A stretch of 64,000 nucleotides of DNA from Candidatus Latescibacterota bacterium. GTDB taxonomy: Bacteria > Latescibacterota > UBA2968 > GCA-2709665. The translations under genes were made by a program, and so were the position numbers. Below, piece after piece: positions 4,569 through 16,578 of the stretch; positions within the stretch are counted from its first letter, which is position 1, and every line of letters begins with the position of its first letter. The DNA lies in NCBI GenBank assembly GCA_965222075.1, contig OZ244937.1, positions 544,001-608,000 of the forward strand, read 5' to 3'. The notes under the pieces were generated by a model. It was not told where the DNA came from. It saw nothing but the letters and a program-made list of their open reading frames with translations, and ran no database searches.

Positions 4569-5280
4569 TTATTTGTTCGGTTCGCTACAAGCCGCATACC
4601 TGCATATCTCGGAAGTGTCTGGATTTGCTACGTTTCGTCCGTCCACCCACCGCCTGGCCGACTTCGACCCCGCACGCGCCTGCCTGCGCGGCGCACCGCG
4701 CTGCAGGCAGGCCGCATACTGCCATTCGGCCGCACTCGGCAAGCGATGAGAGGAGCCCGTCTCCTTCGACAGCCACTCCGCGTATGCCATGGCGTCGCCA
4801 ACACTCACGCAGACCACAGGGTGTTTGTCTGTTTGACCATATCCCGGACGTTTCCACGTTAGTCCAGACTTTTTCCGATAATAAGAGGTCTCAGGCGCCT
4901 GGCAACCATATTTAGGTTTGCGCTCCGCTTCGGTGTTATAGCGAGTCGCCTTGACGAACCTGCCGAACTCCGCTCTGGTCACTTCATACCTGGATATTGC
5001 GAAAGGCCCATGTTCACCCATTCGTAAGGCTCTACTCCCTCGTAGAGAAAACGACCGCTGGGAATCTTCACCATCTCAGGTCCCAGCCCGCCCGATTTCA
5101 GACGATCCCGCGGAACGACTGTTTTTGCCGCTTCAACTTGCCGCATCTCCAGGGCTTCCGTGTAATGCGCGCCCTCCTGTCCTGTCACCTTCAGATAGCT
5201 GTATATACGTTCTACAACGGCGCCGTACCCCGTTTCTTTCTGTCCATTCTCCAAATCACGATCCGCCTCTCGCATTAACA
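4569..5280 (-). pseudogene. FGE-sulfatase (SUMF1-like) domain gene, frameshifted and truncated
   Basis: GPEMVKIPSGRF in one frame; FAISRYEVT...HPVVCVS..DA.AY.EWLS..TG...RLPSAAEWQYA in another; C-terminal half missing; carries a 33-nt palindrome insertion. Confidence 0.8.
4679..4711. repeat. CCTGCCTGC...GCAGGCAGG palindromic element (33 nt, in frame)
   Basis: Removing it restores the canonical EWQYAARAG. Confidence 0.9.
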
Positions 5281-5630
5281 GGGTTGAAGTCGATTTTGAC
5301 GTCGGCCGTGGAACGCAGGATCGCATTGAACAAAAATCTGTTCATTTCATGAGCACCGCAGGACAAGAAAGCGGATTCAATAGTCTCGGGTTTGTTCTTA
5401 CCCAAGAGATAACTTTGTTCGACCACAAGATCAACCTCAACGCCGCGGAGACGCGCATCGATGATTGCCTCGGCGATCTCTCGATTGTCGATCTCCTGGA
5501 CGGCTATCATCAAATTTTGTCGTCTCTTCGCCTGCTTGATGAATGTGACAATTGGCTTGATAAGTGAATCGGGGGCAAACTGTTCCTTCGGCCCCATATA
5601 CAGATCTATATTGTCAACCGATATCGGCAT
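5256..5630 (-). pseudogene. N-terminal fragment of a phospholipase D-like protein
   Basis: IAVQEIDN.EIA.AIIDARLRGV.V.LV.E pattern; breaks after DFNP, before the expected HxK motif, at the junction with the FGE fragment. Confidence 0.6.
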
Positions 5631-5842: not shown

Positions 5843-7102
5843 CTAGTTGCCCTGCGGGTTGGCAGACTGCCCGAACAGGACGAGCGGCGCACCCACAGCG
5901 GTCTGGATACCCCGGTAATAGTCCACTGGTAGTTCAGGCGCAGCACCCAGATTGACCGAAACCGGATTGACCCCACTCTGGGTCACCACTACGGCTTCGC
6001 TCGCGGTGTGACCCGATGAAATCGTAGCCGTAGTGTCCGACAGGGTTCCACCCTGTGCCGACAGATTGACGGTCATGTCGAACGGCGCACCCTCGGCAAG
6101 TTTGACCACTACGGTGGCAGGACCCGGCGCAGTATTGTCTGTGTTGTCTGTGCGTTCCAGCTCTATTGTCAATGTAAAGGGAGATCCAGGGTTATCTTCA
6201 AGCCATAGCGCTTCCAGTCTGTACAGGCCTGCGAACATATCCTCAGGCAGTGCGCTCAAAGCGTTGCCGGTAAGCGATATCTCCGACAGCCTGTCCAGGC
6301 CGGAGAACCCCTCAGACAGCGTACTCAAAGAGTTATTGTCAAGATATAGGGAATGCAAACTGGACAGGCTGGAGAACCCCTCAGGCAGTGCGCTTAAAGC
6401 GTTATTGCTAAGATATAGGGAATGCAAACTGGACAGGCCGGAGAACACCCCCTCGGGCAGTGCGCTCAAAGCGTTGTGGTTAAGAAATAGTCTTTGCAGC
6501 CTGGACAGGTCTGAAAACACCCCCTCGGGCAGCGTGCTCAGACCGTTTCTGGAAAGCGACAGATCTTCCAGACTGGACAGGCCGGAGAACACCCCCTCAG
6601 GCAATGCGCTCAAAGCGTTGTGGTTAAAATCCAGGAGACGCAGACTGGACAGGCCGGAGAAATCGTCTCCCTGCAAGGCAGTGATCCCATGACTACCAAG
6701 ATTCAAGCTCGTGATCGAGGATAGGTGCGCCTCCGTGACTAGGGCGCAGTCGTCCACAACAGGAGGTAGCGCGGCCAAGATGGCACCGCAGACCTGTGGG
6801 GTCCGGTTGCAAATCCCCGTCGTGCTGACGTTCAGCGCTTTGCCAAAGTTTCTGGCAAAGATCAAAAAATCGGCAAACCCAATAGCGCCATCTACATCCA
6901 GGTCGTATTTTGCTTCATACTTCCCATCGCCCTGACTTGCACCGAACTGTTCTACAAATAGCACAAAGTCGGAAAATCCAACCATACCATCGCCATTGAA
7001 GTCGGGAGTAGGGGCTGATTGGACCTCCGTGCTGGGCCAAAGCGCCAAGCTCTCAAAAAGAGCGATTGATAGGATTGCGCAGGTCAAGATCAGCCTACGC
7101 AT
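5843..7102 (-). CDS. Secreted dockerin/EF-hand plus leucine-rich-repeat protein
   Basis: Signal peptide; DFNGDGMVGFSDF...YDLDVDGAIGFADF; about seven 23-24-aa LRRs (LxxLxLxxNxLxxLPEGVFSGL); beta-rich C-terminus. Confidence 0.9.
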   Translation of the reverse strand: MRRLILTCAILSIALFESLALWPSTEVQSAPTPDFNGDGMVGFSDFVLFVEQFGASQGDGKYEAKYDLDVDGAIGFADFLIFARNFGKALNVSTTGICNRTPQVCGAILAALPPVVDDCALVTEAHLSSITSLNLGSHGITALQGDDFSGLSSLRLLDFNHNALSALPEGVFSGLSSLEDLSLSRNGLSTLPEGVFSDLSRLQRLFLNHNALSALPEGVFSGLSSLHSLYLSNNALSALPEGFSSLSSLHSLYLDNNSLSTLSEGFSGLDRLSEISLTGNALSALPEDMFAGLYRLEALWLEDNPGSPFTLTIELERTDNTDNTAPGPATVVVKLAEGAPFDMTVNLSAQGGTLSDTTATISSGHTASEAVVVTQSGVNPVSVNLGAAPELPVDYYRGIQTAVGAPLVLFGQSANPQGN

Positions 7103-7485: not shown

Positions 7486-8775
7486 TTATTTGAGCATGAG
7501 CATCCGTTGCATACGGCGGAATTCCCCGACTTGCATTTCATACAGATAGATACCACTCGATACAGCCTGTCCAAGCGCATCACGTCCATCCCACACCACG
7601 CGATGCGCGCCAGCCACCATCAGTTCTCCCGAGACAAGGCGACGCACTTCCTGCCCCAGCACATTGTAGATGACCAGGTCCACCGGACCGGCCTGCGCAA
7701 GGGTAAACGCAATCGTCGTTGAGGGGTTGAACGGATTGGGGGCATTCTGCTCCAGGCTGTTTTCCAGCTGTGAAGCAGGCTTGCTCGCCTGTGTCGTCCC
7801 ATGCCCATTGGTCGCGATGCGATCCACCACGAGATTGTCGTCGGCAAGCGATAGATCATACAGAGACACAGGCAAGGCACCTGTGATCTCACTCCGTTTT
7901 TGAAATACAACCTGAGTCAGTGTGCCACTGCCCTTCGCGGCAGAGTAATCGCTTTTGAGCGCGGAGACCACCCGGAGCCGCCCATCTGCATCCTTGACAA
8001 GGCCTAATGCCGCATCTGCACCCTGCTGCTTCAGCAGTTCATTTTGTTGGGTGGATATTCCAGCATATTCGAGCACACGGGGATCATAATGTAGCACCAT
8101 CTCATATCCTATTAGCCCTGATGCTGCACTCACACTGGCATTTGCCACAATTACATGTCCTGACTTTGGTTCAAGTCATAGAGACTATTACCATAAATGA
8201 TGCGGTATCCGGTCATTTCGTTCACCTTGTTCCAATGGACTTTTACACCGTTTGAAGATGTTGGAATTGCGCTAATAATGACTGGAGGAACAATAGGGGT
8301 CCACAAAAATTGGAGTTCCGCCTGTTTAAGCTTAAATGCCCTCTGTGCATTACTTTCATCCGTGTTCTGGATACCAATAGCGAACCATCGGCTTGTGTAA
8401 GAGTCGAGGTCCCCGGCACGGTTTTTGACTGCCTCCTCAAGGGTATTGTTGGATATCGTATGCGAATCCCCCCATTGGCCATTTGTTTCGACTTCTTCAA
8501 ATATAGGTGTATCGCTCCCAATCTTACTCCATACAGTAGAGAGCGCCCCTGAATCACTACAATCTACATCAAAACCTGGATTGGTTCTCCCCTCATAAAA
8601 TCTCGCATTACATGTTGTGGAATCTCCACGGCCATCAATATGAATGGTCAAGTACACATCGGAAATTGTCTCAGCACTGATAGACGGTTGGACCACATTC
8701 AAATAAAATACGAGATGCCCGCGGCCTTGATAATGTGGAGAACTATCTTTTCCAATATCACTCGTAAAGCAGTTG
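7486..8775 (-). pseudogene. Remnant of a large secreted protein: partial FN3-like, cohesin-like and FlgD-Ig/C-terminal sorting domains
   Basis: LEQNAPNPFNPSTTIAF...IYNVLGQEVRRL...WDGRDALGQAVSSGIYLY; frame break near 8150; 5' end cut by the IS5 remnant. Confidence 0.7.
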
Positions 8776-8987
8776 GAAGCTGTTTTAAAAAGGTAGAGGC
8801 GTAAAGAAAAAAGTTGAAATTGCGTATTCATCTATCCAAATTCAGGTTGTCCCAAACCACCTGAAACGAAAGGATAAAGATGAATACGCAGAGGCAATAT
8901 CCAACAAATTTGACCGAAACACAATGGCAACTTCTCCTCACGCTGCTGCCCAAACCCAAATGGCGTTTCGGCTGTCCTGGTCGCCCA

Positions 8988-9017
8988 CCTGTCTGCGTGC
9001 GGACACGCACAGGCAGG
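8988..9017. repeat. Palindromic element (30 nt, in frame in the IS5 transposase)
   Basis: CCTGTCTGCGTGCGGACACGCACAGGCAGG; removal restores GRPPVNLRR. Confidence 0.9.
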
Positions 9018-9055
9018 CCGGTCAATCTACGCCGAGTGTTCAACGGCATTCTGTA

Positions 9056-9136
9056 CCTGTCTGCCTGCTTGCCTGTCTGCGTGCAACGCACAGGCAGGCG
9101 CGCTGCGCGCAGGCAAGCGTCCCTCGGACAGGCAGG
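9056..9136. repeat. Three nested 27-nt palindromic elements (81 nt)
   Basis: CCTGTCTG[CCTGCTTG[CCTGTCTGCGTGCAACGCACAGGCAGG]CGCGCTGCGCGCAGGCAAG]CGTCCCTCGGACAGGCAGG. Confidence 0.85.
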
Positions 9137-9320
9137 TGGGTATTTCAACAGATGGAGCCAACAAGGCATCTTCCAAAAGATCCAACAGGCACTCCACAGA
9201 AGGGAGCGACGCAGTCAGGGTCGCAAGCCTACCGCTTCAGCAGGCAGTATAGACTCTCAAAGCATTAAGACAGCAACACAAGGGAAAATAAAAGGTTACG
9301 ATTCTAGCAAGAAAATCAAT

Positions 9321-9341
9321 CCTGTGCCAACGGCAGACAGG
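9321..9341. repeat. Short variant palindromic element (21 nt)
   Basis: CCTGTGCCAACGGCAGACAGG at the junction of a large transposase deletion. Confidence 0.65.
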
Positions 9342-9463
9342 TACATTGCGATGATTCACCTTTTGATCAAGAGACTCGCTTCCAAATCTGAATTTTAAAA
9401 CGGCTTCTCAGATTTTACCGCTACCAGGCTAAAGGAGACAAATTTTACCAACATAACCGGAAT

Positions 9464-10214: not shown

Positions 10215-11855
10215 GTGCGTAAGCGGATCGCGACTTTTGCCGTTATCGCCATCGCGCTTTTGATTCATCCGCTATCTCATTCTGGGGCAATTGTTTCGTC
10301 ACAATCCGACCTGCCTGCGCCGGATGCCCTGCCTGCGCCGAGTGCTCGGCAGGCAGGTCGGCAGGCAGGTCGGCAGGCAGGCCCGAGTCCCGACTTTAAT
10401 GGGGATGGTGTTGTGAATTTTAACGACTTTGTGCAGTTTGCGGGCGTGTTCGGTTCAAGCCGAGGGGGTGGGACGTATGAAGCGAAGTACGATCTGGATA
10501 GCGATGGCATGATTGGATTTTCAGATTTTGTGATCTTTGCCGGCAACTTCGGCAAAGCGGTGAACCGCCTGCCTCGTCGGCAGACAGGCATAAATGCCTT
10601 TGATTTTCCGCTGCGCGCCATCTCCGCCGCGGGGAATTGGGGAACCAATGCGCAAGTTGTAGCAGAGTGGGAAGCTGCCGGGAGGGTCGGACCTCTCATA
10701 CCTCCGGAGTATATTGAATGGCTGAAGAGCCTGCATGTGAACTGGATCTTACTCTCCGTCGCTCTGCATTACGAAGACAGCATGGACAGCACGGTTGAGC
10801 GTAACTATTCAGCGGATATAGATATCTCTACTTTTTCGGATAAAGCTCTCAGACAGCTTATACGGGAATTCAGAGTTCACGGAATTGACGTGTATCTGAC
10901 CCTCGCATTCGAAGCCCATGAGGCGGAAACAGCCGCACGCCCGGTACAAAGGTGGCAACTTGGAGACCCGGCACCACCTCACACGGGCGGCGTTCCTCCT
11001 GACGATCCCGACATCTTCGGATTGATATTACCACAATTTTGGCCGTGGCGTCCGGATCACCCGGATCACGAACGTTTTGTCGCCGAGTTCTGGGAGACCT
11101 ATACACAACAGGCGGTACATTTCGCCAGAATCGCAGAGGATGAGGGGGTGCGATTGTACTCGTTGGGCACGGAGACTGATCGGCTTTTTCGAACGCGTTC
11201 AGGAGGCTATATGACCAATGATTTCGGTCAGGAACTCAGATCAATGGTGGAGAGAGTGCGTGCCGTGTACAGTGGCGTGTTGACCTATGACACGCACTAT
11301 GACGTATTCACAGCGTCCGACTTCTATGGACCGGGGTCGGGAGCAGGTCATCTATGGAAAGATTTGGATCTCGACATCGTGGGGATCAGTGCATGGTTTC
11401 CACTGACGGACTCGCGTCCGTCAACGGTACTGAGCGTCGAAAGTTTCCAGGCGAGTTATAGGCAGATATTCCAAAACCAGCTTATTCCTCTTGCGGACAG
11501 AAATCCCGACCGGCCCATTGTGTTTACCGAATATGGTGCTATGGATGTGGTTGAAACACCCGAAAGACCAGGTGATACATCAGCGCAAAACCGGCGATTC
11601 GTATTTACCGATTCGAACGGCAACGGGCTGGATGACGGGCGGGAAACTCAGGCCAACATCTATGAGGCCTTAATCAACACCATGGCTCAGTACCCTGGGA
11701 TAGTAAATGGTGTCTTCTATTGGGATAATTGGATAACCAGCGACGAACTGTGGGCGGGATACTGGGCAGGTCGGCGTACTTATGCTATTCGTGACAAGCC
11801 GGCTGAGGAGGTCGTGCGGTCAGCTTATGGGTCCTACATAAAAACGAAAAATTGA
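10215..11855 (+). CDS. Secreted dockerin/EF-hand plus glycoside hydrolase TIM barrel (GH113-like)
   Basis: Signal peptide; DFNGDGVVNFNDF; SLGTETD, VRAVYSGVLTY, DIVGISAWFPL, IVFTEYG, DKPAEEVVR motifs. Confidence 0.8.
   Translation: MRKRIATFAVIAIALLIHPLSHSGAIVSSQSDLPAPDALPAPSARQAGRQAGRQAGPSPDFNGDGVVNFNDFVQFAGVFGSSRGGGTYEAKYDLDSDGMIGFSDFVIFAGNFGKAVNRLPRRQTGINAFDFPLRAISAAGNWGTNAQVVAEWEAAGRVGPLIPPEYIEWLKSLHVNWILLSVALHYEDSMDSTVERNYSADIDISTFSDKALRQLIREFRVHGIDVYLTLAFEAHEAETAARPVQRWQLGDPAPPHTGGVPPDDPDIFGLILPQFWPWRPDHPDHERFVAEFWETYTQQAVHFARIAEDEGVRLYSLGTETDRLFRTRSGGYMTNDFGQELRSMVERVRAVYSGVLTYDTHYDVFTASDFYGPGSGAGHLWKDLDLDIVGISAWFPLTDSRPSTVLSVESFQASYRQIFQNQLIPLADRNPDRPIVFTEYGAMDVVETPERPGDTSAQNRRFVFTDSNGNGLDDGRETQANIYEALINTMAQYPGIVNGVFYWDNWITSDELWAGYWAGRRTYAIRDKPAEEVVRSAYGSYIKTKN
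10310..10381. repeat. Nested palindromic elements (30+30 nt plus a 12-nt arm duplication), in frame
   Basis: Encodes LPAPDALPAPSARQAGRQAGRQAG between the signal peptide and the dockerin domain. Confidence 0.88.
10568..10588. repeat. Short variant palindromic element (21 nt, in frame)
   Basis: CCTGCCTCGTCGGCAGACAGG in the linker after the dockerin domain. Confidence 0.75.
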
Positions 11856-11862
11856 AGCCCTG

Positions 11863-11931
11863 TGTGGGCACCAGCCACAGGATAAATTGGTAACGCGCCT
11901 CCAATGCCGGGCCAGTCTGACGCGCCCGGGC
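11863..11931 (-). pseudogene. avd: DGR accessory variability determinant (Avd) N-terminal remnant
   Basis: ARQTGPALEARYQFILWLVPT resembles Avd N-termini as recalled and is paralogous to 16411-16470; lies just downstream of a DGR-type target gene. Confidence 0.6.
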
Positions 11932-12107
11932 TTTTAAGGGGCATTCAAAAGTCTGACTTCTAAGCCTTACAGGAAAGTTCAAAGGGAAAAATACCTCTCA
12001 CAGACCACAGAACCCGTCCAAAAAAATCGAAAAAGCCTCTCAACCCCCCAAAAGCTCCATCCTCATTTCCCCTCCCCTCCCCTCCAAAGAGGTAAAGAGG
12101 TGAAGAT

Positions 12108-12815
12108 TCAAGGGGTAAGCGTCCGGGCAATACGGAAACCGATGACGGCTGAACCGTCCGCCGGAGGAGACCCTGTCGCGGTACGCGGCGCGGAGGTCCT
12201 CGGGTAGTCGAACCACGAGCCGCCGCGCAACACGCGACGCGCACAGTCGCCGCTCTCCCAGGCCGAGCCGTCCGCCGCCGCGCCTCGGTAACTGGCGTGC
12301 CAGCAGTCCTGCACCCACTCCCACACGTTGCCGTGCATGTCATGAAGTCCCCACGCGTTGGCACCGAACGCACCCACCGGCGCCGTCTTCTTACCGCCCC
12401 ACTGACTGCCGCAACCATCGCAATTGGCCCGGCCCTGGCCAATCTCATTCCCCCAGCTATACGCCGTCACCGACCCCGCACGCAACGCATACTCCCACTC
12501 CGCCTCGCTCGGCAAACGGTAACGCAGGTCCGTCTCCACCGACAGCCACTCCGTATACGCCACCGCATCCTCCCACGAAACGTTGATCACCGGACGCCGC
12601 CCACGGCCCCAGCCTGCGTCGTCCATCCGCTCTCTACTCGTCGCCGCCGTGAAGCGATCGTACTCCTCGAACGTCACCTCGTACTTCGACAGCGCGAACG
12701 ACCCAACCGTCACCTCGTGCACCGGCTTCTCGTCGCCAGCACAGTCTTTACCCGACACGCAGCCCATCCGAAAACGGCCCGCAGGAATCACCACCATCTC
12801 AGGCTCAAGCGGCAT
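12108..12815 (-). CDS. FGE-sulfatase/C-type-lectin-fold DGR-type target 2 (probably the split C-terminal part of the upstream kinase gene)
   Basis: PEMVVIPAGRFRMG, RLPSEAEWEYA, WGLHDMHGNVWEW, RVLRGGSW...GFRIARTLTP; 3' flank shared with target 1. Confidence 0.85.
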   Translation of the reverse strand: MPLEPEMVVIPAGRFRMGCVSGKDCAGDEKPVHEVTVGSFALSKYEVTFEEYDRFTAATSRERMDDAGWGRGRRPVINVSWEDAVAYTEWLSVETDLRYRLPSEAEWEYALRAGSVTAYSWGNEIGQGRANCDGCGSQWGGKKTAPVGAFGANAWGLHDMHGNVWEWVQDCWHASYRGAAADGSAWESGDCARRVLRGGSWFDYPRTSAPRTATGSPPADGSAVIGFRIARTLTP

Positions 12816-12850
12816 CTGTGGTCACCCTTGCTCTTTCGGCTTCTGTGCAG

Positions 12851-14146
12851 TCACTTGCCTTGCTCTGCTTTCGCTCTTGCTTCTTGCTCTTGACGACGCT
12901 CTTGCTCTTGACGACGCTGCTCAGCCTGTTCTTGACGACGCTGCTTTTCGGGTAGATATTCATATTCATAATAGTATAGCCCCCCAACAAGATAGTATAG
13001 CCCCCCAACAAGGAGAGCAACCATGCATACAACCGCCGCAAGCCACTTCCCTTTGCGCTTTTTGGGAGAACCCGACCAGGCGTCGTCACGCTGATGCACG
13101 GGTGGGGCATCTACTCTCTCTCGTTCCTGTGCAAACGTTGTGACTAATCCCCTGGCAAACAACGGCAACCGGGCGTCGTCACGCTGATGCACGGGTGGGG
13201 CATCTACTATCTCTCGTTCCTGTGCAGACGCTGTGACTGGCGGCGGAATGTTCACGCTGCCTGATGTTTCTCCAGACAGCGCAGGACGCCATGAAGCCAC
13301 ACTTTGCGGGCGGGCAGCCTTATCCATTTGCAGGGCTTTATCTATCGCAGAAAGAAACCCAGCACTCGCTTGACCCGCGCAGCGCTCAGACACTGGAATC
13401 AGCGGGTCCTGGATTACTCTTTCCGTGGCGTCGTCGGGCACTTGACCAGTCAACGCCCGGTAGCACACGGCCCCCAATGCGTAGATGTCTGTCCAGGGCC
13501 CTTGATCACCCCGACTCGAATACTGCTCTATCGGCGCGTAACCCGGCGTGATAATCGACGTAACAGAACGGCTCTTAGCACCGATCGCCTGACGCGCCGC
13601 ACCAAAGTCCAGCAACACAGGTGAATTGTCCTCATCCCGAATGATGATGTTGCCCGGCTTGATGTCACGGTGCAGGAAATCGGCACGATGTACCACCTCA
13701 AGGCCATCCAGGATCGGATACAGAATGGCCTTGAGTTCGGCTTCGCTCAGCGTCCCTTTGCGTGCGAGGAATGCCGATAAGGTTTCGCCCTCGGCATACT
13801 CCATCACGATATACGCCGTGCCATGCGCCTCAAAAAAGCGATACACTTTAATAATGTGGCGATGATCGAAGCGGGCTAAGGTGCGTGCTTCATCTAAGAA
13901 ACGACCCAGTCCCCACTCAAAATCATCTCGAAACTGGCTGGCTTGCGGGGCAACGCTGTTGTCGCCTGTACGGGTGGCGATATCGGCGGGCAGGTATTCC
14001 TTAATGGCCACGGCTTTGTCCAGGTTGTGGTCAAAGCCCAGATACGTCATCCCGAATCCGCCAAAGCCCAGCACCCTCACCAGTTCGTATTCCTGGAGAC
14101 GGTACCCCTGGGGCAGCGCGTTGAGGGGGTGGTGTGCGTCGTTCAT
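12851..14146 (-). CDS. Ser/Thr protein kinase with TM helix and coiled coil (paralog of 16579..18993, separated from its FGE domain by stops/frameshift)
   Basis: LGFGGFG, VAIKEY, HRDIKPGN, DFG, GYAPIE; start MNDAHH with RBS. Confidence 0.88.
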   Translation of the reverse strand: MNDAHHPLNALPQGYRLQEYELVRVLGFGGFGMTYLGFDHNLDKAVAIKEYLPADIATRTGDNSVAPQASQFRDDFEWGLGRFLDEARTLARFDHRHIIKVYRFFEAHGTAYIVMEYAEGETLSAFLARKGTLSEAELKAILYPILDGLEVVHRADFLHRDIKPGNIIIRDEDNSPVLLDFGAARQAIGAKSRSVTSIITPGYAPIEQYSSRGDQGPWTDIYALGAVCYRALTGQVPDDATERVIQDPLIPVSERCAGQASAGFLSAIDKALQMDKAARPQSVASWRPALSGETSGSVNIPPPVTASAQEREIVDAPPVHQRDDARLPLFARGLVTTFAQERERVDAPPVHQRDDAWSGSPKKRKGKWLAAVVCMVALLVGGLYYLVGGLYYYEYEYLPEKQRRQEQAEQRRQEQERRQEQEARAKAEQGK

Positions 14147-14188
14147 AGTGTTTCCCTCAAAGGGTTCTTCTCTTGTGTGTTCATCCCC

Positions 14189-14325
14189 GTGCGGACGAGG
14201 ACCTGCCTGCCGGGTCGCCTGCCTGCGCGGAGTTCTGCTCGGCAGGCAGGGCGCAGGCAGGCGTCCGCGCTCCCAGGTTGGCATGGCGCACTCAAACCAT
14301 GCGGGCGAGGACGCCCGCGTTCCCA
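14189..14325 (-). repeat. REP-like hairpin pair (GGGARCGCGGRCGTCCTCGYCCGC), one copy carrying a 60-nt nested insertion
   Basis: Same pair without the insertion at 19037-19113. Confidence 0.7.
14202..14261. repeat. Nested palindromic elements (27+33 nt)
   Basis: Absent at the paralogous position 19047/19048. Confidence 0.92.
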
Positions 14326-14331
14326 GGGAGG

Positions 14332-14495
14332 TTAATCTTTCGCTCTTTCTTCCGTATCCTGCCAATCGAACGCGTCGCCGCACAGGGGCACGAACCGGAG
14401 AACCGTTGCGCCAATGCTGATATGGCTATGCGCGGGCAGTTCCGTCGGAATGAGCACGGGCTGGTCGTTGAGGTAGGTCAGGTTGGTGCCGCTCC
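14332..14495 (-). pseudogene. Duplicated 3' fragment of the FHA-domain gene
   Basis: GTNLTYLNDQPVLIPTELPAHSHISIGATVLRFVPLCGDAFDW, paralogous to 19118-19280. Confidence 0.8.
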
Positions 14496-14497
14496 CT

Positions 14498-14827
14498 TCA
14501 TTCGTTGGGTTGAGCGGAAAGTTTAACTTCGATATTGCAGTGAAGTTTGTCTTGAAGAATGAAAAGAATATGCGTGAGATTATCCATTGTAGGATTTCCT
14601 TTTGACGACAACATACGATGGACACTCTTGCTGGGCTTATCGAGCTCTTTTGCCAATAATTCAAAACCAATCGTTGAATTTACGAGTTCCCGAAGAACAA
14701 GACGGGCAGTTTCAGAATCCCCGCTTAAAAAAGATGAAACGGCTTCATTCATTAGAGATGCAGCAAAATCAGGATCTCTTTCTGCCCTTTCTCTAATTGT
14801 CTGCCTGTAGTCGCGTGTCAGTGCCAT
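14498..14827 (-). CDS. Addiction-module antitoxin / HTH regulator (HI1420-like)
   Basis: [22 protein letters not shown]...[22 protein letters not shown]; GGAG RBS. Confidence 0.8.
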
Positions 14828-15001
14828 GTTTATCTCCTGCGATTTGTATTCTTTCATCATCTCTCCGGCTTTCGCAATATCCCTTTGTTGGCGGTCTTTT
14901 GTGCCGCCTCCCAGCAATACGATAAGGTCGTCACCATCCTGGAGTAAATAGATTCGATATCCTGGACCCCAATCAATTTTGTATTCTCCAAGCCCTGGCA
15001 A
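14828..15001 (-). pseudogene. C-terminal half of an addiction-module killer toxin (RelE/ParE-like, HI1419 type)
   Basis: [14 protein letters not shown]...[17 protein letters not shown]; N-terminus missing; reads in frame into the antitoxin. Confidence 0.75.
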
Positions 15002-16015
15002 TCAGGTCGTGGTGTCTGATTGTGTTGACGACTGCGTCGGGGCGTCTCGATTTTTTTCTTCTAGCGGTTCCCCACTGATTTTGCCTGTCTCGATTCGTCT
15101 TGATTGCTGACCGGGTGACGCTGTCAGCGCTTTCTTCAAGGCAGACCAAAGCCCTGACAGGCCTGTTTCCCGTCTTGATGGCTGAGTCTCTTCGCCCTGT
15201 TTGGATTTCTCCTGGGCGGTATCATCGGGAAGCGTTTCCACCCCACAATCGGCCTCCGGAGTGTAGAGCAACACGGTGGTATTGTCCTGGTGGGGATGTC
15301 CGACCTCTTCCACGGCATGGATGAGTGCCCCGGTGACTTCTTCAAGGGGTGCGTCCTGCATGTCCTGTAGAATACGCGCAATCTCCTCATCCTCAAGCGT
15401 CATTAAACCATCACTCGCCAATAACAGACGATCGCTTTTTCGAACGGCAACCGGTTGCGATGAAATGTCAATCAGGTGGATTTCATCGCCCATGACCGCA
15501 GACCGCAGGGCATGCCGTTTGGAATCGGTCGCGGCTTCTTCTGCGGTCATGCGCCCCGCCGCCACCAGGCTGGCGAGCACCGGCGCCATGGAGTGATCGG
15601 CATTGAGGCGGCGCAACTGCCCGTCACGGAACAACCACAAGGGGGAATCCCCCACACTGATCCAGTCGAGTCCGTGTTGTGAAATGACCGCTGCGACCAC
15701 GGTTGACCCCATGCCCTTCAGTTCAGGATTATCCTCGGTAGCCCGGGCAAGGGCATCATTGGCGGCGGTGAGGCAGGCGCGCAGACGATCCGGGACTGGC
15801 CCGTCCGTGCGGGGATAGGTCTCGACAAAGGTCTTGACAACGGTCCTGCTGGCCGTGTCGCCGCTGACGTGCCCGCCCATCCCATCGGCTAACAACAACA
15901 CCTCACTGCCGTCAATATCGGGATCGCCGCGCTCAATCAGGCCGTAATCGTCCTCCTGATATTCCCGCCCACCGGGAATTTGCCGCGCGGCGAATCGTCC
16001 TTCCAATCGGTTCAT
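15002..16015 (-). CDS. PP2C-family Ser/Thr phosphatase
   Basis: GGREYQED, LADGMGGH, GMGST, VGDS, DHS, LLASDGL, QDNTT. Confidence 0.93.
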   Translation of the reverse strand: MNRLEGRFAARQIPGGREYQEDDYGLIERGDPDIDGSEVLLLADGMGGHVSGDTASRTVVKTFVETYPRTDGPVPDRLRACLTAANDALARATEDNPELKGMGSTVVAAVISQHGLDWISVGDSPLWLFRDGQLRRLNADHSMAPVLASLVAAGRMTAEEAATDSKRHALRSAVMGDEIHLIDISSQPVAVRKSDRLLLASDGLMTLEDEEIARILQDMQDAPLEEVTGALIHAVEEVGHPHQDNTTVLLYTPEADCGVETLPDDTAQEKSKQGEETQPSRRETGLSGLWSALKKALTASPGQQSRRIETGKISGEPLEEKNRDAPTQSSTQSDTTT

Positions 16016-16082
16016 GGTGTTCCTCCAATACGGCGCAGGGCTGCTGCCGTCTCATTGGCATTGTATGCCATCACAAAGTGCA

Positions 16083-16126
16083 GCGGTGTCCCTTCCCCAC
16101 AGGCGCGAGGCAAAAGGGACACCGCC
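16083..16126 (-). other. GC-rich hairpin at the end of the spacer downstream of the TR
   Basis: GCGGTGTCCCTT ... AAGGGACACCGC inverted repeat. Confidence 0.55.
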
Positions 16127-16209
16127 CTTACCTCATCATGACCGTCCCTGGACGCTCCGTTGCACACCCGGCAACACCGTAGTGCTGCCCGTTCTGGCAG
16201 ACGAGCGTG

Positions 16210-16323
16210 CGGGCAACTCGAAAACCCCTATTGTTGTTCCGGTTTTCGATCCTGTTCCTGTTGCGATTGGCCGAGCGGAGGTTCCTCGGTTTGTTGTTCC
16301 ACGAACCGCCACGCAACACGCGC
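16210..16323 (-). mobile_element. DGR template repeat (TR), 114 nt
   Basis: Gap-free alignment to 16595-16708; 16 mismatches at TR adenines and 2 elsewhere; conceptual translation RVLRGGSWNNKPRNLRSANRNRNRIENRNNNRGFRVAR is rich in AAC/AAT. Confidence 0.95.
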
Positions 16324-16512
16324 TCAGGAGGGACGATCAGGCTTCCAAAGCGGATCGAACCACCCGCCTCGAAAGATCGCATGGCGCAACCGCCATGTAT
16401 TGGCATGATCACGCTCGACCGTCGGGACCAACCAGACGAGAAAACGAAAGTGCGACTCCAGCGCCGGGCCTTCCCGGATTGAGGCTACCCGCAACGGGCG
16501 GGTGGTTAGCAT
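16324..16512 (-). pseudogene. Fused avd-5' / reverse-transcriptase-3' stub (internal deletion of the DGR core)
   Basis: GPALESHFRFLVWLVPTVER (Avd-like N-terminus) joined at about 16410 to HANTWRLRHAIFRGGWFDP (DGR RT-like C-terminal tail, from recall); stop abuts the TR. Confidence 0.65.
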
Positions 16513-16527
16513 GCCCTGGCCGGATCG

Positions 16528-16550
16528 CCAGGAGGGCGAAGCCCCCCTGG
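16528..16550. promoter_or_regulatory. DGR target-recognition hairpin downstream of VR/IMH
   Basis: CCAGGAGGGC-GAA-GCCCCCCTGG about 28 nt past the target stop codon; GRA triloop as in characterised DGRs. Confidence 0.75.
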
Positions 16551-16578
16551 ACCCCCCAGGAGGTAAAGAGGTGAAGAT

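Follow-up and report, generated by a model that had tools for sequence, protein, structure and literature searches.

The window, a stretch of 64,000 nucleotides from a Candidatus Latescibacterota bacterium (contig OZ244937.1, positions 544,001 to 608,000), contains a DGR locus whose features are collected in Table 1. The target gene is intact, and its product consists, from the N- to the C-terminus, of a Ser/Thr kinase with its kinase motifs, a hydrophobic segment (residues 337-355), Glu/Ala/Arg-rich repeats, and an FGE-sulfatase (CLec-type) domain. The match to PF03781, which we take to be a marker of the CLec fold in DGR targets, spans residues 569-800 of 804, and the variable repeat VR1 lies at the 3' end of this CLec-type target. 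In the scored core, VR1 and the template repeat (TR) show 16 mismatches at TR adenines, and 2 of the 76 non-A positions differ. In translation, 11 of 38 codons differ and 17 codons are variable. The C/G difference at the 3' end of IMH and IMH* is present and is common to nearly all relatives. The VR/TR pattern shows that adenine-specific retrohoming in the ancestral element acted on the C-terminal CLec domain and diversified it. The hairpin after VR1, to which a putative role in target recognition is assigned on the basis of the accessible text of PMC3240598, is intact, and the relative L001 has the same hairpin with changed letters. The stalk of the target carries a 57-nt tandem repeat (17262-17603); P0100, a different allele of the target, has the same Glu-to-Lys change in four of the units, which suggests concerted evolution.

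Table 1. Features of the DGR locus and its surroundings; all lie on the (-) strand, positions are those of the window, and deletion sizes are relative to L001.
Feature	Position	Basis or remark
Target gene, 804 aa, intact	16579..18993	PF00069 E 8e-37, PF03781 E 4e-50
VR1 with IMH, 3' end of target	~16589..16712	repeat comparison with TR
GC-rich DNA hairpin 3' of VR, 10-bp stem, 3-nt loop	16528..16550	candidate target-recognition hairpin
Stub ORF, 62 codons	16324-16512	between target and TR
Stub codons 1-14, intergenic DNA, not avd	16471..16512	comparison with L001
Deletion junction 1, 127 nt missing	16470..16471	11-of-13-nt microhomology at the boundary
avd remnant, codons 21-40 (P0039 numbering)	16411..16470	stub residues 15-34
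Deletion junction 2, 1258 nt missing	16410..16411	alignment to L001
RT 3' tail, codons 334-361 and stop	16324..16410	also 5' segment of the DGR RNA
Upstream strand of long-range duplex, inside RT tail	16330-16339	predicted
TR, AAC-rich, 31 adenines in 114-nt core	~16204..16327	repeat comparison with VR
Spacer RNA	16083..16203	predicted helices; labels by analogy to bioRxiv 10.1101/2023.10.23.563531 (accessible text)
Stem-loop, Avd-binding-like	16168-16192	predicted; window-specific broken pair at 16190
Primer strand pairing with TR 3' end	16150-16157	predicted
Strand pairing with RT tail, cPRT-stop-like	16139-16148	predicted
Terminal hairpin	16083-16125	predicted
PP2C-type phosphatase, directly after spacer as in L001	15002..16015	Pfam and synteny
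Second target, broken	12108..14383	kinase ORF 12851-14383 out of frame with CLec part 12108-12815
VR2, compensating 1-nt indels, no match to local TR	12121-12236	in second target
Second avd remnant, codons ~17-38, closest to L002 avd	11863..11940	no RT or TR after it

The locus belongs to a signalling cluster (15002-24891) composed of two trypsin-FHA proteins and of FHA, MotA/ExbB-like, kinase-CLec, and PP2C proteins, which looks like a receptor-kinase or conflict module. The cluster is conserved, in a different order, in L001 (OZ244744.1, Latescibacterota) and L002 (OY282377.1), the two closest loci of a genome scan. At 14498-15001, the C-terminal half of a RelE/ParE-like toxin (TIGR02683 positions 46-95) and, after it, a probable antitoxin ORF abut the 3' end of the PP2C gene, where the similarity to L001 stops. 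Farther along are a broken FGE-sulfatase gene (4569-5100), a PLD-like fragment (5256-5630), and an IS4/5 transposase fragment (8880-9398), together with dockerin-LRR (5843-7102), cohesin-FlgD (7486-8148), and dockerin-GH113 (10215-11855) proteins; the dockerin regions of the first and the last are inverted copies of each other over 188 nt at 76% identity. A palindromic, REP-like repeat of about 40 nt is present several times, both in intergenic DNA and inside genes (4677, 14216, 34286, 42106, and others).

The first-pass annotation had placed about 250 nt between the target stop and TR, and the positions of the stop codon (16579-16581) and TR (~16204-16327) agree with this. It had read that interval as an Avd-like start joined in frame to an RT-like tail. 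Both halves do match Avd and RT: residues 15-34 of the stub are identical at 20 of 20 positions to P0039 (Avd, PF22296), residues 35-62 are identical at 28 of 28 positions to P0003 and P0004 (RT C-terminus, PF00078), and the two segments are in frame. Homology searches with the stub returned Avd proteins (PF22296) and DGR RTs (PF00078), and the identification depends on these searches, since the stub alone matched no family in Pfam or NCBIfam. The start itself is not Avd. The first 14 codons are intergenic, their 42 nt matching the intergenic DNA of L001 at 29 of 42 positions as against 11 of 42 for avd codons 7-20. The avd remnant proper is 93% identical to L001 in nucleotides, with four synonymous and no non-synonymous codon differences.

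Alignment to L001 requires two gaps. Relative to L001, the loss at junction 1 comprises the avd ribosome-binding site (GGAGG), the start codon, and codons 1-20, and that at junction 2 runs from avd codon 41 to RT codon 333 and thus includes the whole RT catalytic core; microhomology was sought at junction 2 as well and none was evident. The distance from target stop to RT stop is accordingly 1647 nt in L001 and 258 nt in the window. Because the real avd start is deleted and codons 1-14 are intergenic, the 62-codon ORF is accidental. The earlier proposal that avd and RT had collapsed into a 62-codon stub therefore has to be replaced: judged by the alignment, the stub is an accidental ORF produced by two deletions and not a collapsed protein. 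The Avd/RT join is probably in frame by chance, and translation of the ORF is unlikely.

With codons 21-40 remaining, the locus retains 20 of 132 Avd residues, and with codons 334-361 it lacks an intact RT carrying the YxDD and SQ motifs of DGR RTs. A profile of 31 related RTs run against 1553 six-frame segments of the window matched the stub only (E 2e-13; next match E 0.49), and no RT family was found among the 64 window ORFs that were scanned with Pfam, in keeping with the first-pass view that the window holds no RT ORF. None of the 35 loci of the genome scan has the stub of the window. Among proteins of 34-109 aa the single candidate for the same stub (1 of 1) was an RT-tail fragment of another DGR, and the junction was seen in no other protein found by the homology searches.

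The ancestral arrangement can be read from the relatives. L001 has the intact order target-avd-RT-TR followed by PP2C, its surrounding genes are about 75-81% identical in DNA to those of the window in a rearranged order, and the order target-avd-RT-TR also occurs in most related loci, as the first-pass annotation had supposed for the original element. L001 and L002 share the gene cluster, target type, and order with the window; unlike the window, both have full avd and RT, and their adjacent VR is free of non-A mismatches. At L002:2795-20081, one intact DGR sits among seven or more kinase(-CLec) genes in tandem, with five VRs that were diversified from one TR. In the scan, which used exact peptide patterns only, each of the two closest chromosomes has one locus of this subfamily, a point in favour of a frozen element. 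The RT tail of the window is nearer to L001 (86/88) than to L002 (82/88), and TR (104/116 versus 98/116) and the spacer (109/125 versus 98/125) are nearer to L002 than to L001, so the locus may be a mosaic.

The RNA of the element was modelled by RNAalifold on an alignment of 20 chosen loci, namely, the window and 19 of the 35. In the predicted structure, the RT 3' end pairs with the spacer over 10 bp, TR and spacer form a further duplex, a stem-loop follows TR, and the RT tail contains two hairpins. TR would thus be flanked by the structured RNA expected of a DGR (upstream-spacer duplex, template-primer duplex, and stem-loop). Compensatory change occurs in 22 of 44 pairs, 97.7% of cells pair, and none of 500 shuffles reaches this, figures to be read with the structure being derived from the same alignment of related sequences and the RT-tail hairpins being confounded by coding. 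The window preserves 43 of 44 pairs, with a fold z of -6.0 for its RNA; the one broken spacer pair is unique to the window among the 20 sequences. Junction 2 lies about 13 nt upstream of the first RNA hairpin, and all modelled helices fall inside the retained DNA. By this model all cis signals, including the hairpin after VR1, are kept, as would be required of a non-autonomous element, and the first-pass statement that the cis elements survive stands for the RNA pairs, for TR/VR, and for the post-VR hairpin. Rfam gave no match over 11500-19500. A sigma-70 promoter scan gave no site in the window region and none in intact L001 either, and is therefore uninformative. When 24 RTs were compared, the RT tail had synonymous variation of 0.48 and 0.44 against about 0.34-0.64 elsewhere, a slight reduction at most; the L001/L002 pair alone peaks in the RT tail (92%). 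At L033:8240-8430, TR lies between target and avd and not after RT, yet it has the upstream duplex strand; this strand, kept away from RT, marks the element as RNA-level and independent of RT coding.

A second, broken target lies downstream. Its VR2 does not match the local TR, nor does the first VR of L001 (L001:3872-3987) match its own. Between these two VRs there are differences at 14 TR-adenine columns and, two indels aside, none at the 84 other columns, and the 300 nt upstream of them are 65% identical (195/301). The agreement at non-A columns beside the upstream divergence implies that a second template existed, and points to its being elsewhere or recently lost. The avd remnant behind the second target was considered as another avd-RT collapse and rejected, as no RT tail or TR follows it. 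In L002, avd codons 21-40 also stand behind four satellite targets (L002:4567, 6638, 16253, and 18277), which show 0-1 non-A mismatches. These pieces have nearly the same extent as that of the window and a different avd origin (36/55 nt identical); the four share both ends and are probably the product of one event, and the satellite targets are apparently served. Behind targets that have no RT of their own there is often a short piece of avd whose end falls near codons 31-40, another example being L019:11616-11660. A role of avd codons 21-40 as a family-wide cis element found no support: across 25 avd genes they have no synonymous drop, and they have no conserved fold. The L002 avd remnant drifts like nearby intergenic DNA (50/55 versus 114/122).

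Loss of the RT recurs in the subfamily. The 35 loci comprise 23 with a whole RT, five with a full-span frameshifted RT, one cut by a contig end, and six that have lost or split much of the RT (L014, L015, L017, L019, L025, and L028), TR being kept in five of these six. VR of L014 has a 6-nt deletion, and the target of L025 is truncated and fused to the RT tail. On OX638294.1, L019, with its RT internally deleted and no TR, lies about 200 kb from L032, which has two tandem whole-RT DGR copies. Among 71 proteins there are seven fusions of an Avd piece with an RT tail that lack catalytic motifs, each with a different junction, and three RTs with internal deletions; the fusion counts are biased, as the query was the fusion and every RT-side match had to keep the tail, and all 71 are known as proteins alone, some possibly being assembly chimeras. 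P0002, a 439-aa Avd-RT fusion in the same set, lacks RT residues 1-113, keeps the catalytic motifs, and could be a frameshift or deletion product.

The first-pass annotation had left the cassette as either frozen on one variant or served in trans, and the evidence supports the former better: we consider it likely that the locus is a recently inactivated, frozen DGR. Its ancestor, as L001 shows, was a chromosomal kinase-CLec/avd/RT/TR/PP2C element in a Ser/Thr-kinase and FHA signalling cluster, and, as VR and TR show, it diversified its CLec domain by adenine-specific retrohoming. Two internal deletions, evident from the alignment to L001, then removed the start of avd and almost the whole of both genes, and without an enzyme in cis the intact target would be locked on its last variant. 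TR, spacer, and hairpin would still be present because the deletion, being recent, left them untouched. The coding remnants, which are dead, are unchanged at 48 of 48 aa against the nearest relatives; this suggests that the deletions are recent and that intact cis elements would be expected without selection. The survival of the cis elements is thus no sign of selection, the dead coding remnants being equally well preserved.

Indirect signs lean towards a lack of activity since the enzymes were lost. P0100, known from its protein sequence alone (a cluster of 22 sequences), differs from the target at 9 of 804 positions (about 1%; seven substitutions and two single-residue gaps), three of the nine being in the CLec domain, and at 0 of 38 VR codons from VR1. 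The five VRs of intact L002, in comparison, differ pairwise at 11-15 of 38 codons. A little drift is suggested by the two non-A mismatches of VR1 and by the single broken RNA pair, both weak signals: among the 16 intact loci scorable for VR/TR mismatches (of 23 with a whole RT; seven were not scorable), the best VR has none in 12, one in three, and two in one, L031. The surroundings show decay as well (the frameshifted second target, the broken FGE gene near 4.6 kb, and the transposase fragment), and L014 and L025, as similar losses with damaged VRs, favour a frozen element. Several points weigh against it. The constant VR in P0100 could also be explained by selection or low activity; 43 of 44 RNA pairs are intact at a fold z of -6.0; VR2 implies a second template beyond the window, whose RT could persist elsewhere; and the match of the avd piece to the L002 satellites stays a coincidence if the element is frozen.

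A less probable alternative is a non-autonomous mini-DGR, in which the locus makes a full template RNA (RT-tail helices, TR, and spacer, with perhaps read-through from the target) that Avd-RT from another DGR of the genome copies into VR in cis. In a further form of this reading, which we regard as equally doubtful, the locus is a naturally minimised DGR reduced to cis parts, with a second DGR in the genome giving Avd-RT in trans. The kept parts would in that unlikely case be the VR hairpin, avd codons 21-40, the RT-tail RNA helices, TR, and the spacer, and the avd codons, retained independently behind the L002 satellites, would perhaps act as a target-side signal. The RNA helices, all of them inside the kept DNA and half of their pairs compensatory in a way no shuffle reproduces, the intact hairpin after VR, and the second template that existed outside both regions are consistent with this, as is OX638294.1, where a collapsed locus coexists with intact RTs, though L019 has no TR. 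In the accessible text of PMC5758913 and PMC3240598, avd, TR, and brt work from a plasmid, and in Bordetella they were supplied together (PMC3240598); the parts available of PMC8144416 and PMC12629997 add nothing on trans supply. The identical VR of P0100 and the signs of drift argue against trans service, nothing at the locus shows activity, no promoter-like site was found (as in intact L001), and dead elements such as L025 also retain TR and RT tail. The analogy with a MITE finds a single TR copy in the 64-kb window and no MITE-like spread. In the main text of openly available papers, no demonstrated natural local TR served by a remote RT was found. Diversity at the RT-disrupted Thiohalocapsa loci with their own TR is ascribed, in the accessible text of PMC10907252, to earlier activity or intact variants and not to a trans RT.

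Somewhat less plausible still is a population polymorphism, in which the deletion variant coexists with cells or close strains that have the intact element; it seems improbable, too, that the lineage is still diversifying its target and shedding RT-less locked clones. Both remnants do have identical counterparts in intact Avd and RT proteins (P0039; P0003, with 30 member sequences; P0004), Thiohalocapsa DGR 3 and 7 present the same situation (PMC10907252, accessible text), and another collapse, P0001, has an RT tail identical at 26 of 28 positions with a different junction. Against this, the identical VR of P0100 suggests little turnover, and two successive deletions with drift suggest a lasting state. 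An assembly artefact or a functional Avd-RT fusion peptide is very unlikely: the junction occurs in no other protein found and in-frame Avd/RT fusions recur in protein databases, but the window has no Ns, long genes nearby are intact, an assembler would find no repeat to collapse at junction 2, the ORF starts in intergenic DNA and retains 20 of the 132 residues of Avd and none of the catalytic motifs, and the other fusions have different junctions and were found with a query that was itself a fusion.

Keeping TR and VR with its RT missing, the locus belongs to an already published kind, the degenerate DGR locus, and RT-inactivated DGRs with intact TR/VR are known; the comparisons that follow refer to the accessible parts of the papers cited. 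For Thiohalocapsa PB-PSB1, degenerate loci are described together with activity in trans from remote TRs and with intact variants that coexist with them (PMC10907252); it shares with the window chromosomal CLec-target DGRs, a kinase among the target domains, and RTs missing or disrupted at some loci; trans activity was considered there and RT-deleted structural variants were seen. The losses in Thiohalocapsa are tied to transposons and MITE-like arrays, whereas the window has clean internal deletions, and the case for trans activity there concerned VRs that match a remote TR, whereas the window keeps a local TR and all RNA helices. DGRs with inactivated RT and intact TR/VR (PMC3521204) resemble the window in recent RT loss with TR/VR still differing mainly at adenines, but those are cases of nonsense mutations, frameshifts, and IS insertions, and here avd and RT are almost wholly deleted. 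Like Bordetella phage BPP-1, the window has an upstream-spacer duplex beside a TR-spacer duplex and a post-TR stem-loop (bioRxiv 10.1101/2023.10.23.563531), as well as a GC-rich hairpin after VR (PMC3240598). Unlike in BPP-1, it is the RT 3' end and not avd that contains the upstream strand, no enzymes are present, and the hairpin loop has 3 nt in place of the 4-nt GRNA loop (PMC3240598). VR2 resembles the remnant targets of Treponema denticola, whose VRs were frozen after loss of the core DGR (PMC4891356); those isolates lost RT and TR, whereas the main cassette here keeps TR.

If trans service were true, a natural DGR template could be uncoupled from its enzymes, and if the locus were a minimised DGR, collapses elsewhere would be overlooked RT-less template donors, invisible to RT-anchored DGR surveys. 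The template RNA is marked out with covariation support for a DGR type that has its 5' RNA segment in the RT coding end. As a fossil, the locus is a clean, base-resolved example of DGR switch-off that fixes one variant of a kinase receptor. With 6 of 35 loci affected, losses of this kind are common in the subfamily, and searches anchored on the RT would overlook or miscount them.
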